Position numbers and translations under genes: made by a program
Sequence record: NC_007023.1
Reading direction: 5' to 3' (one strand)
Length of the DNA stretch: 64,000 nt
DNA from: Escherichia phage RB43
Shown: piece after piece, positions 1-5,296 of the stretch
How the letters are laid out: each line of letters begins with the position of its first letter
How positions within the stretch are numbered: the stretch's first letter is position 1
The notes under the pieces: generated by a model
What the model was told of the DNA's origin: nothing
What the model saw: only the letters and a program-made list of their open reading frames with translations
The model's database searches: none

Positions 1-939
1 TTAGTAGTGACTGAACCCTGCGGTTACATCGGTCATCACCTGATAACGACATACACGCATTTTGGCGTTGTCGTAATCTACTGGAATTGCTACCACATCG
101 CGAGGGTTAGCCTTAACGTGGATCACGCGCCCACGTCCACCGCCATAGTGAGGAAGATATGATTTAGCGGCAACATGCAAACCACACGAGCAAGTTTTGG
201 TTTTGTCTTCGTCTACCTGGTTGCGAGGCATTTTGACGATAGCACCAGGGCTGTTATCAAACTTGCCTGTTGCCATGTCTTTATAGTCTTCGCTAACACG
301 TTTCCATGCGTAGAAATCACCATCATCAGCCAGTTCGATATCGTTATGCACCAGGAAGCCATAAAGCTGATACACAGCATCACGGGACGGGTTTTGCATC
401 AGCTTTTCGAAGAAGTTCACCAGGTGTTCATACGGACGTTCATTATACATTTCACGAACGATTCGTTGGGTGATCCCTCCATCGAAAACGACATCTTTAT
501 ACAGCACTTTATGTCCGACGATCTTAATATTGCCTTTGCTGTACACTTTCAGGGCTTGCTTAGTGTTCAGCAATGCGGCTACACCTTCGATATCGCCTTT
601 AGTCAACAGCGCGTGTGCCTTTTCGAAGTTCGGGTGAGTAGAATCAGCAGTCAGGATTTCGCCGTTGATTACCAGAGTAATGAATGATTCAGAACCAATC
701 ATTTTCGAACTCACATCCGTTTTCGGTAGTGCTTTCGATTCTTCCTGCTCATACTTCGCGTGTTGTTCGGTAATAACGCGCCCGATGGTTCGGACGCTTA
801 CACCAAATTGTTTAGCCAGTGCGGTTTTGTTTGCGCTGGTTAGAAAGCCCTCATAGACTGCTTTCTTTTGTACATCATCGAGGATCTTAACAGTTCTCAT
901 TATTTCCACCGTATTAATTTTACCATAATCATCAGTCAT
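1..939 (-). CDS. rIIB: rIIB-like protein (C-terminal 312 codons of the continuous 1049-aa rII ORF)
   Basis: Internal ATG at 939..937 preceded by GGAAGA; HTH-like ALAKQFGVSVRTIGRV near N-term; conserved C-terminal FYAWK/FDNSPG/HPRD motifs; 312 codons to TAA at 3..1, the length I recall for T4 rIIB; no stop separates it from rIIA part. Confidence 0.55.
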   Translation of the reverse strand: MTDDYGKINTVEIMRTVKILDDVQKKAVYEGFLTSANKTALAKQFGVSVRTIGRVITEQHAKYEQEESKALPKTDVSSKMIGSESFITLVINGEILTADSTHPNFEKAHALLTKGDIEGVAALLNTKQALKVYSKGNIKIVGHKVLYKDVVFDGGITQRIVREMYNERPYEHLVNFFEKLMQNPSRDAVYQLYGFLVHNDIELADDGDFYAWKRVSEDYKDMATGKFDNSPGAIVKMPRNQVDEDKTKTCSCGLHVAAKSYLPHYGGGRGRVIHVKANPRDVVAIPVDYDNAKMRVCRYQVMTDVTAGFSHY

Positions 940-3150
940 CGCTTTATCTTCCAGAATATACCGGATTTGATAGCCATCACTGTTTCTCAGGATTCGAGCA
1001 ATTAACGGATTGCGTTTAGCGAAAATCTCATATTGTTCGTCAACGCGTTCAATCATTGCATGTTCCATTTCTTCATGTCGGGCCTGTGCCACACGAATAG
1101 ACGGGTTCTTTGCTTCTGTCGTTTCACCGTCTTCTGTAGTCTGCATCAACACTTTACCATCAAGCGTGTTCAGAATATTGTATCGACGCGCATCATAACG
1201 GTTTTTAACCATGCGATCAAGGCTAATACCCAACTTTTCATATAGCTCTTTAACGGAATCACGGTACTTTTTCGAAACAAAAGCCGGATACCAGTTAGGT
1301 TTCATTTCTTTTGCAGTCTTGCAGAACAATTCAGCAAGGAACGTATCAAGACAAATCATGCTGCTGTCTGGGATCTTATTCCATAACGAATTACGGAGTG
1401 TATACACCACACGAACACCAGAGATTTCCATCACAGTAGCCAGGTTATTCATGATGTTTGACATCGAGAAGTTATTCGACTCACTCAACGAACTGTAATC
1501 ATCAACACCATACAGACGCAATGCGTATGCAGATTCGAGGTTGACAAACTCCGCTTTCGTGAGGAACAAATCTTCTTTGTTCAAATCGCCATTGATCCCG
1601 ACCGTGTAACGGTATGCTGTCGGCGTTTTCGGACGCGGTTCGGAATCTTTATCGATTGTTTCGCGTGTTGCTCTCCAGCGACGGCGATCCTCAGTATACA
1701 CTTCCAGTTCTTCCGTCATTTCACTGGTTTTCAGATAAACGATTTCAGATTCATCATAGTAACCGTTTTTGATGAAGTTCTGTAAATTATCCTGATTTCT
1801 GTTCGGATCGTATTCAATAAAGTTCATACGGTAAGTTTTGTGAAGCATACAGTACCCGATAGCATACGCACGTACAGACTTCGCGTTGTTATCGTTCTGT
1901 AACAGATACAGGTTTCTTTGCTTCCACGGGTGCAGCATACGCGTAATATCCTGGCGGCGCATGGTTTCAGATTTATACGCGTCGTAACGACGACCAGAAC
2001 CTGTGCGCTCAAAACTGCAATCTTTACCGTCATACACGTTCGCCCAGTATCCCCAGATCTGCATACTGGTGACCAGGTCTTTACTATTGAAGTGCATCAC
2101 CAGTTCAGCAAGGGTATTTTTCCCTACTTTAAACTGCTTATCACGGGTAACGAAAGTCTGCAACAGCGTTGGTAAATTTTGATACCAAATAACCTTTTCA
2201 CGCGTCGTTTTCAGTTTAGCAAATTCTGCTGATAGTTCTGAATAATACTGGTCGTTGATTGCTCCGAGTCGATCCATGATAACTTTCTTGGTGATCTTAT
2301 CAAGGCTTAACTCTTCGCGTGACGGCATGAAATCCAGAGAACCCAGCGGAAAATCCAAAATGTACGCATAGCTACTGTTCTGGTAGCAATAAAACAGGGA
2401 TTCTCTGAACATATCCAGGTCAATAGGATAGCAAATGTTACCCATACGCGCATACAAACCGGAATAATGCTTTGACTTATAACTGATGATCCCGCGATTA
2501 TTTGCTTCTGTCGGTTGCCAGTTGATATCCAGTTGAACACCAATAAAGCGAGGACGAATAGTTGTAAACGCTTCGTACACACGAGCGGCTTCACGTTCCC
2601 ATTCTGGGATATCTTCGACGTTAACCGGAACTGTTACCTGAACGCCGTTAGGTTCATCAGTTTCTACAGCATACAGAGGGTCAATGTACGGTTCGCCGTC
2701 TTCATTGAGGTAAGCAGTATAACCGCGCTTCATGCCGTCCTGAATTGATTCTACGGTGAATGTTGAGGTGTAGCAGAACGGTGATTTGCTACCCAGCCCC
2801 AACGCCCCGATCAGGTCGTCGGTGTCGGTTTTGGTTGATTCGAAATAAACGGTGAATACTTCGTTCACCATGTAATCACTCAGGCCAGTACCGTAATCAC
2901 GAACGATGAAACGAGGATCGAGAACAGTCGGTAACTGAACGTCAAAGCGATCCATGTTACCCGCTACGATATGACCATCAATCGCGTTACAAGAAATCTC
3001 ACGAATGATTGCGCGGATCTTGTATTTGTAGATTGTGGATGAAAGGATTTTGAACGCTTTCTTACCTGCTCTCATTCCAAAAGCTCTACGGCTTCCAGAC
3101 TCGATACCTACACGATGAACTGTGCTTGCTTGGCTTTCGCGTAACTTCAT
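940..3150 (-). CDS. rIIA: rIIA-like protein (about 737 codons, reads in frame into rIIB)
   Basis: ORF track 1..3150; N-terminal ATPase-like motifs (NAIDGH, DYGTGLS, GLGSKSPF) resembling T4 rIIA. Confidence 0.7.
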
Positions 3151-3160
3151 TGTTTATATC

Positions 3161-3394
3161 TCACTTGTTGAAAATAATGTTTTCGCATGAATACTTTGTC
3201 GGTTTCTTGTCGATACCGTATTCAAGCGGTGTACACATACGATCCATATAATCGTAAATTTCTTGTTTTCGTTTTTCTTCCTTTTTCATTTCAAGGATAC
3301 CAAAAACGATAGCAGTCACAAAACACATAGCGATAGTTGAAAGAATAACGATAGCTACATATTTTGATGTGTTTGGTGCGCTGTATGGTCTCAT
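3161..3394 (-). CDS. small membrane protein (hypothetical)
   Basis: 77-aa ORF with hydrophobic helix VAIVILSTIAMCFVTAIVFGIL; ATG overlaps upstream stop (ATGA). Confidence 0.4.
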   Translation of the reverse strand: MRPYSAPNTSKYVAIVILSTIAMCFVTAIVFGILEMKKEEKRKQEIYDYMDRMCTPLEYGIDKKPTKYSCENIIFNK

Positions 3395-3933
3395 TGTAAC
3401 ACCTTTGCAAATTCCTGTGAAGTCAGTTTACGGGCAACTAAACGCCCTTTTGTTGATGCTTTATGGCCTACCATATACATCGTTGAAATGTTGCGCTTTC
3501 CTGATTGAATCTCATTATACATCTTTTCAGGCATGGTTGATTGATAAACTTCACCGTTTGATGTTTTCAGGAACATCGCGTAAACATGGTCATCTTTCTT
3601 TTCGATGATTTCTTTTTCACGAACACGAACCTTAGATGATGTTGGTTTAGCACCCAATTCAATAGCCTTTCTTTGCCATGCAGGTCCGTGTCCAGCACCA
3701 TAACCAACAAGGGCATGTGCGATTTCGTGCATAAGAGTATCTAAAATGCACTCGTAGGTATCTTCTTCAACATGTTTCCGGCGTAACTGGATCTCTCTTT
3801 TGGAGTAACTGCAACAACCCAGAGTAGTTTTCAAACGTCCATTAATTTTGAATGACCAATCAGACAAACCATGTTTAGCCATGATGCTTTTGGCCCAAAG
3901 AATAATTTCCATGTCACTACGAGTTTTGAACAT
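3391..3933 (-). CDS. SprT-like zinc metalloprotease domain protein
   Basis: HExxH motif (MHEIAHAL) plus Cys cluster; start MFKTRSD with AGGAGGA 6 nt upstream. Confidence 0.6.
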   Translation of the reverse strand: MFKTRSDMEIILWAKSIMAKHGLSDWSFKINGRLKTTLGCCSYSKREIQLRRKHVEEDTYECILDTLMHEIAHALVGYGAGHGPAWQRKAIELGAKPTSSKVRVREKEIIEKKDDHVYAMFLKTSNGEVYQSTMPEKMYNEIQSGKRNISTMYMVGHKASTKGRLVARKLTSQEFAKVLQ

Positions 3934-4005
3934 TTTACATCCTCCTAATCGGTAGCGGGAGTAATATAACAAAAAAGCCCCTGCATCGCAAGGGCTTAAT
4001 GTAAA

Positions 4006-5296
4006 TTATTTCAATTTCTTCGAAAGTTCTTTCAAATCATTGAGATATTCAATTTTCGGGGTTGTCTCTTCCCAGTATTTCAGTTGCTTGCGCAATTCAT
4101 TTGCTTCATCTTCCAGCTTTTGACGTTCGTCAGTAGTTAGATGATAGGATGTTCATCGCAACCAGTATTTCGGCGTGGTTTTCGCAACCCTTCCATGTTG
4201 ATACGAATTGAACCGCTTCACTACGACTCAAGCCCTTCAACGAGTCAGGAGATTCAATCATCTGGTCGATAAATTCAACCTTAGCCAGCGCCCTTGCAAG
4301 TGCTTCCTTCGCTTCCTGTATGCGTTTTTCGATGCGCTGTTGATAAACCGTCATACGGATATCAACGAAATCTTTCAACAACGTTTCAGGACGTTCATAT
4401 GAATGCAACTTACCATTGAAGATAACGTTGATGTTCGGGTTTGAGTTCTCAATCAATCCAAAATCTTTCAGGATCTTTTCATGGGTAAGCCCGTTGGCAT
4501 ACTCACGTTTAAGGGTTATCTCATAGCGAAAATCTTCTTTCGATAGATCCTTATAGCTTACGATACACCCTTTCTCTTCCAGCTTATCCAGAATCGCAAT
4601 ATATTTCACGCGATCATACTTGACCGGAATCTCAGTGATCACCAGTTTAGTTTTACCCTGGAGTTCGTACTTACCGTACATTGTCCCGTCTACAATGTCA
4701 CCTTTAAATTGTGGATATTTCAGGTCAAGCGTGAAATCTTTCCCGTTCAGGTAACTAACACATCCATTCAGAACCGAAACCGGATCATGTGGTGGAATGT
4801 TTGTCGCGTATCCTTTCGCGATCCCTCTGAACCCGTTAACCAACACCATAGGAATGATTGGCAGATAATAGGCTGGCGGTAGGTGTTCAGGATCTTCATG
4901 CGGGATTGTTAAATCTTCGTCCATGTAGATAGCCTTGAACAGCGGAGACAGCTTACAGTAAATGTAACGAGGTGCGCCAGGCTTCTTAACCAGACGGGAA
5001 CCAAAGAACCCATCACGATCGAAAAGCGGGATATTATTGCACCAGTGCGCCGCCATGAGAGACAACGCTTCTTCAACGGATGTTTCCCCGTGGTGATACC
5101 CGTATATTGCAACACCGCCAGCAATAGATGCTACTTTCTGGAAGCCTGAACCTCCTTTCGCTGCTGAATGCACGAAGAAACGGTGAACGGGTTTGAACCC
5201 GTCTACCAGGTGCGGGATAGCACGAGAATAAATTGTGTAAAGGGCAAACGTAAGCCCTTCAACCTGTACAACGTCTTTAATACTTCTTTCCATCAT
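4006..5296 (-). CDS. 52: DNA topoisomerase II medium (GyrA-like) subunit gp52, reading frame broken near 4133-4152
   Basis: N-term AIPHLVDGFKPVHRF GyrA signature; 388-aa ORF 4130..5296 ends prematurely and a coding-like +1 frame (DERQKLEDEANELRKQ...KKLK) continues to TAA at 4008..4006. Confidence 0.7.

Follow-up and report, generated by a model that had tools for sequence, protein, structure and literature searches.

The rII locus of Escherichia phage RB43, as it was deposited, raises the question whether this phage makes one fused rIIA-rIIB polypeptide or the two separate proteins of its relatives. The window, meaning the whole stretch of 64,000 nucleotides analysed here, consists of the opening 64 kb of the RB43 genome as originally deposited in the Sanger era (NC_007023 / AY967407; Nolan et al. 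2006, PMC1524935). The ORF list contains an open reading frame of 1049 aa on the minus strand at 3150..1, which runs free of stops from ATG 3150..3148 to TAA 3..1, as had been described in an earlier note made from the sequence alone. By exact identity its product is GenBank AAX78523.1 / YP_238977.1, 'RIIA-RIIB membrane-associated', of Escherichia phage RB43, and an exact-sequence look-up found the 1049-aa protein on one contig only, of 180,500 bp. In agreement with the same note, the N-terminal part was found to be rIIA-like and the C-terminal part rIIB-like. Residues 1-727 match the rIIA family phrog_612 (E 4.2e-204, profile positions 1-709 of 725), and the C-terminal part (approximately 230 residues) matches several rIIB families, the rIIB profile matches for window 939..1 being phrog_3803 (E 2e-53), phrog_36818 (E 9e-52) and phrog_11221 (E 2e-37). 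No Pfam family reached E <= 0.01 in the fused protein, where an N-terminal domain of the GHKL / HATPase_c type would be expected for a T4-type rIIA, the protein of lysis inhibition and of protection against Rex exclusion. More distant homologues of the protein, retrieved with a protein-database search, carry PF13589 or PF02518.

Alignment of the locus with RB43-GVA, Miller, Xman and RB16 by MAFFT and blastn located one surplus T in a TT doublet at 928..927 on the minus strand (AA on the plus strand). At this site the window reads GATGATTATGG, whereas the four relatives read GATGATATGG with a single T. The locus has 3400 bases in the window and 3399 in every close relative, and between window positions 3400 and 401 the extra T is the sole difference from the independently sequenced RB43-GVA. 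On the coding strand it lies 25 nt before the rIIA stop and immediately 3' of TGATGA (934..929), which was recognized from frame translations as two stops in the rIIB reading frame of the relatives. Because the extra T comes right after these stops, the shifted frame escapes them. The linker YGKINTVEI of the window protein is an out-of-frame reading of MVKLIRWK-stop. When one T was removed in silico, the translation gave an rIIA of 749 aa that equals the protein of RB43-GVA, with its stop at TAA 902..900; in the window as written this TAA is out of frame, and the two-gene arrangement around TAATG is found once one T has been taken out. The insertion alters the last 8 rIIA residues only, and the ribosome-binding site and the ATG of rIIB are kept.

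Based on the comparison of sequences, the real locus is almost certainly an ordinary pair of overlapping genes, rIIA and rIIB, with the boundary at TAATG (902..898). After removal of one T, rIIA occupies 3150..900 on the minus strand (2250 nt, 749 aa) and ends with ...DDMVKLIRWK-stop; it equals the rIIA of RB43-GVA, and the corrected protein covers profile positions 1-722 of 725 in phrog_612. On the same strand rIIB occupies 900..1 (900 nt, 299 aa; ATG 900..898, stop TAA 3..1), as supported by the annotation of relatives and by the PHROG matches. The rIIA stop (902..900) and the rIIB start (900..898) share one base, an arrangement kept in 12/12 relatives. A Shine-Dalgarno-like GGTGG (910..906, minus strand), which probably serves rIIB, precedes the rIIB ATG by 5 nt and is contained in the final codons of rIIA. 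Overlap of rIIA and rIIB has been described in print (PMC4299905, PMC3861415). Over ungapped positions (299 aa + stop), the rIIB of the window is identical to that of Miller and Xman at 298/300, to that of RB16 at 283/300 and to that of GuL6 at 262/300. No promoter or terminator was found at the junction; over 1-3400 there were 5 promoter-like sites against a shuffled expectation of 6.9, and 3 terminator-like matches against 2.7.

The earlier note had divided the ORF into 737 + 312 codons with rIIB starting at ATG 939..937, and had offered, beside a real fusion, the reading that an indel of one base shortly before the rIIA stop had created it artificially. This second reading was right in substance, the indel being the surplus T, but not in its details. 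Within 940-985, where the indel had been expected, there is no length difference, and the actual site at 928/927 lies about 12 nt outside. The in-frame ATG 939..937 preceded by GGAAGA, the TGA 938..936 that overlaps it and the TAA 946..944 are all present as described; however, the stop that is restored is not one of those beside ATG 939 but the TAA further downstream, at 902..900. In relatives ATG 939..937 belongs to the rIIA frame as an internal Met (codon 738, ...EDKAMTDD..., minus strand) and is followed by TAA 12 codons later. It was rejected as the start of rIIB, since in relatives it would encode only 12 codons. The division itself has to be replaced by 749 aa for rIIA and, where annotated, 299 aa for rIIB from ATG 900..898. 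An alignment of the junction with related phages, which had been proposed as a check, showed one base fewer in each of RB43-GVA, Miller, Xman and RB16, and without the surplus T the rIIA stop is restored.

Nucleotide identity of the locus, determined with megablast on phage genomes, was 100% to two RB43-GVA records (HE858210 and HE981739), 99.5-99.6% to the Citrobacter phages Miller, IME-CF2 and Xman, and 93% to RB16 and Lw1. A related-locus search with a single rIIB query returned 5 close loci. The annotated rIIA CDS measures 2250 nt in Miller, RB16, RB43-GVA, Xman, Margaery, leB and CfP1; GuL6 has 2247 nt and Miro 2262 nt. Relatives with an annotated rIIB give it 900 nt (299 aa) and an overlap of one base with rIIA. 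The RB43-GVA record has rIIA annotated and rIIB without annotation, because that record begins inside rIIB.

The junction survey was made from blastn and annotated records and comprised 12 relatives: RB43-GVA, Miller, Xman, RB16, CfP1, GuL6, Margaery, leB, two IMG/VR contigs, and Miro and phiKp_12 from Slopekvirus. It was found that rIIA ends with LIRWK-stop in all 12, across two genera (Pseudotevenvirus and Slopekvirus), and that the rIIB frame 5' of its ATG is shut by stops within 4-10 codons in every one of them. For RB43-GVA, 27 nt lie between the rIIB ATG and the end of the closest preceding stop in that frame, and this stop belongs to the counterpart of the TGATGA at window 934..929. The 17-nt block ATACGGTGGAAATAATG (914..898), GGTGG included, was invariant in 12/12 relatives, and the flanking 3' end of rIIA diverges. 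Upstream of this block the rIIA frame is open in all relatives, and a Leu codon occurs as TTA or CTT, a change that is synonymous in the rIIA frame. Ribosome-binding sites are annotated at the junction in Miller, Margaery and Miro. One case, phiKp_12, was ambiguous in having an unannotated rIIA upstream, with the same junction. In total 176 phage records were similar at the junction, and in the 60 that were sampled the genes are annotated as two features or are cut by the record end.

The extra T was further considered together with the other differences in the record. Window positions 401-64000 aligned with RB43-GVA in a single piece, with 20 indel events and 2 substitutions. With Miller and RB16 as outgroups, the RB43-GVA length was found at every indel where an outgroup aligns; the indel alleles are therefore private to the window. 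As a result of such indels, an out-of-frame reading replaces the C-terminal 29 aa of the gp45 sliding clamp, the gp52 topoisomerase has 387 aa compared to 428, three +G insertions within 67 nt scramble 22 consecutive aa of DexA, a large ORF of the baseplate region between gp28 and gp48 (the gp29 position) has 457 aa compared to 576, and several small ORFs are truncated. All these gene-damaging indels together could not plausibly be carried by a plaque-forming T4-type phage. A ratio of 20 indels to 2 substitutions is characteristic of errors in base calling or assembly and not of stock divergence. We conclude with high confidence that the fusion is an artefact, i.e. that the extra T is an error of the record and that the rII insertion belongs to the class of private indels. 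Its source almost certainly lay in base calling or assembly and not in a mutation of the stock that was sequenced.

It could alternatively be proposed that the sequenced RB43 stock had itself acquired the extra T by a spontaneous +1 frameshift mutation, from which a genuine fusion protein, and possibly free rIIB from ATG 900, would be made; we consider this quite improbable. The deposited sequence does remain open across all 1049 codons, with no more than the last 8 residues of rIIA changed and the initiation signals of rIIB intact, and T4 can do without rII function on hosts that carry no restricting prophage (PMC2993671), so that drift in a laboratory stock is possible. RB43-GVA, a derivative, was kept in propagation apart from the sequenced stock for about 20 years, and the two lineages could in principle differ at the site (PMC3157838). 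The extra T stands in a 2-base run with no long homopolymer, and no chemistry-specific mechanism of error is obvious there. A fusion that lacks the last 8 rIIA residues and has the whole of rIIB could be tolerated, and viability is therefore no argument against the rII insertion on its own. However, the change is private to one record and is found among 20 indels in 64 kb which as a class must be error, as several of them would destroy genes needed by a viable T4-type phage, such as the gp45 clamp and the baseplate ORF. True divergence of the stocks should also give more substitutions than indels, whereas 2 and 20 were counted. If the extra T were real, RB43 would be a viable phage making a full-length fusion of approximately 120 kDa, and the rII proteins would be shown to work when covalently linked, in a 1:1 stoichiometry.

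Fusion as a natural trait was addressed with a search of 5.8 billion proteins using the 1049-aa query. Among the best 120 cluster representatives none was longer than 760 aa and none covered more than 72% of the query. Because a genuine fusion would match both halves and rank near the top, natural rIIA-rIIB fusions appear either not to occur or to be rare. In the 25-member 90% cluster of the fused protein the 14 other listed members have 749 aa, or 724 aa in the case of IME-CF2. The 724-aa rIIA of IME-CF2 reflects an alternative start. No recurrence of the fused ORF in independent genomes was found in the 90% cluster listing, the sampled phage records or the best 120 hits. Inspection of the last 27 nt of rIIA revealed no slippery heptamer of the type X XXY YYZ, and RNA folding at the junction was no better than that of shuffled sequence (z = -0.2). 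Programmed -1 frameshifting was rejected, there being no slippery site in these 27 nt and no structure, and the overlap frame being closed by stops in the relatives. That selection has given the RB43 group a natural fused architecture, or that the frames are joined by programmed frameshifting, is exceedingly improbable: the rIIB start does overlap the rIIA stop with rIIB in the -1 frame relative to rIIA, a PHROG profile spans both proteins (family 609, 1055 positions) and the RB43 gene is termed 'fused' in one published note (PMC4299905), but the 12 relatives have both the rIIA stop and the upstream rIIB-frame stops, the search and the junction analysis gave the negative results above, and the N-terminal 745 positions of phrog_609 score at about 2.4 bits per residue with RB43-group rIIA, as would be given by a profile made there from essentially a single sequence, presumably the RB43 entry itself.

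The artefact that we favour as the explanation also has consequences outside the RB43 record. The family phrog_609 is labelled 'RIIB lysis inhibitor', and the window protein matches its profile end to end with 2373 bits. Genuine rIIA proteins (RB43-GVA, Lw1, GuL6) scored 1447-1831 bits on phrog_609 as compared to 673-687 bits on phrog_612; with phrog_609 scoring higher, best-hit annotation would therefore call them RIIB. From the composition that these scores suggest for the profile, the RB43 chimera appears to have contaminated PHROG family 609. The rIIA genes of CfP1, iPHaGe-KPN-11i and Pectobacterium phage POP12 are labelled rIIb/RIIB, and the rIIB gene of Klebsiella phage PMBT1 is named 'rIIA-rIIB membrane associated'; the scoring on phrog_609 would explain these labels as well as the PMBT1 name. 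The artefact may also be a source of the convention by which RB43-group genomes are opened at the rIIB stop. The description of the RB43 rII gene as 'fused' is found in the note on Miller (PMC4299905), and literature searches turned up no publication in which the RB43 fusion is called an error, only this Miller note. The fusion should be treated as an error by users of the RB43 reference and by those who cite the 'fused rII gene' (PMC4299905), and in NC_007023 / AY967407 approximately one private frameshifting indel per 3 kb of the window has to be reckoned with. The biological import is small, as the overlapping rII gene pair of RB43 is that of its relatives; the value of the result is in flagging the record and the family profile.

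For the real locus the anatomy of the junction suggests that rIIB is most likely translationally coupled to rIIA by termination and re-initiation. The two genes would be co-transcribed, and ribosomes ending rIIA would re-initiate on rIIB by means of the UAAUG overlap and the GGUGG located 5 nt upstream. Such re-initiation would keep the ratio of the two rII proteins constant. That the nucleotides of the 17-nt block are strictly conserved in both genera, third codon positions included, would fit a dual constraint by coding and by ribosome binding.

Among known systems, phage T4 has an rIIA of 725 aa and an rIIB of 312 aa with a short intercistronic spacer between them. The proteins of RB43 are homologous to these, and the locus is alike in having rIIA upstream of rIIB on the same strand and in serving as the conventional genome origin. 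The RB43 group differs from T4 in having 749 + 299 aa and a one-base overlap of stop and start in place of a spacer. The 312 codons that the earlier note gave to rIIB are the T4 length and not that of the RB43 group. The T4 deletion r1589 (Benzer; Champe and Benzer) reportedly removes the 3' end of rIIA together with the 5' end of rIIB and thereby joins the cistrons. The likeness of the deposited RB43 ORF to r1589 is formal, consisting in one polypeptide with rIIA sequence followed by rIIB sequence of functional length. In contrast to r1589, the window exceeds its relatives by one base, nothing is deleted and both genes have their full length. A deletion fusion of the r1589 type was ruled out, as the record has one base more, and this base is almost certainly absent from the phage. 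The idea that RB43 might hold a natural counterpart of the T4 deletion fusions was left unsupported; with a real extra T, it would have been a spontaneous, non-deletion counterpart of r1589. With UAAUG coupling, which is common in phage and bacterial operons, the junction shares the TAATG, the GGTGG 5 nt upstream inside rIIA and the conserved 17-nt block. The closest match is the gene pair of the RB43-group Pseudotevenvirus phages (RB43-GVA, Miller, Xman, IME-CF2, RB16 and Lw1), with the same gene order, the same neighbours, the same TAATG and 93-100% nucleotide identity, and from this pair the RB43 record differs only by the extra T at 928-927 that merges the two frames.

Comparison with RB43-GVA, an independently sequenced RB43 isolate, showed that the extra T fusing rIIA to rIIB is accompanied by 19 further indel events that are private to the window. 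These were found at positions 3955, 4147, 10249, 12944, 13009, 13011, 20016, 20019, 28457, 48392, 48394, 52567, 53138, 53159, 53718, 54712, 55050, 55051 and 62260. At each of them the related phages Miller or RB16, wherever either aligns, have the length found in RB43-GVA. Besides the indels, the window differed from RB43-GVA by only two substitutions (50932 and 58220). The genes truncated or scrambled by them are those for the gp52 topoisomerase (4147), DexA (12944, 13009 and 13011) and the gp45 sliding clamp (28457), together with the baseplate ORF that occupies the place of gp29 (62260); several small ORFs are altered likewise. ORF boundaries are also affected at 3391-3972, where a mechanical ORF of 193 aa with a TTG start on the minus strand is longer than its counterpart in relatives, a CDS annotated with 543 nt. 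The G inserted at 3955 lies within the 5' extension of this ORF, at a site that is intergenic in RB43-GVA, between the CDSs 2990-3532 and 3604-4890.

Both RB43-GVA records begin at window position 401, and at least HE858210.2 (examined over 178000-179836) ends right where the rIIB stop would follow. HE858210.2 therefore lacks the final 400 nt of rIIB and carries no annotation of that gene. The missing stretch (window 1-400) looks like a gap in record handling or assembly and not a deletion.

At the rIIA/rIIB boundary, the 17-nt block ATACGGTGGAAATAATG (898-914, minus strand) showed no base change across 12 relatives, which belong to Pseudotevenvirus and Slopekvirus. The rIIA sequence immediately upstream of it diverges freely among the same relatives, and blastn similarity with more distant ones sets in abruptly at about 920-934. 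This pattern suggests that the block is under a joint coding and ribosome-binding constraint (translational coupling).

The PHROG family phrog_609, labeled 'RIIB lysis inhibitor', has 1055 positions and has the look of a chimera for which the fused RB43 protein (1-3150) served as the seed. Genuine rIIA proteins reach scores on phrog_609 that are two to three times those they reach on phrog_612, the rIIA family. Such a profile probably accounts for the RIIB labels on the rIIA genes of CfP1, iPHaGe-KPN-11i and POP12, and probably also for the rIIB gene of PMBT1 being called 'rIIA-rIIB membrane associated'.

The fused ORF may also be the source of the genome origin at the rIIB stop in the RB43 group. 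Nolan et al. (PMC1524935) set the origin at the rIIA termination codon, and the authors of Lw1 later defended an identical origin by gene overlap. Records of the RB43 group open at the rIIB stop, whereas T4 uses the rIIA/rIIB divide.
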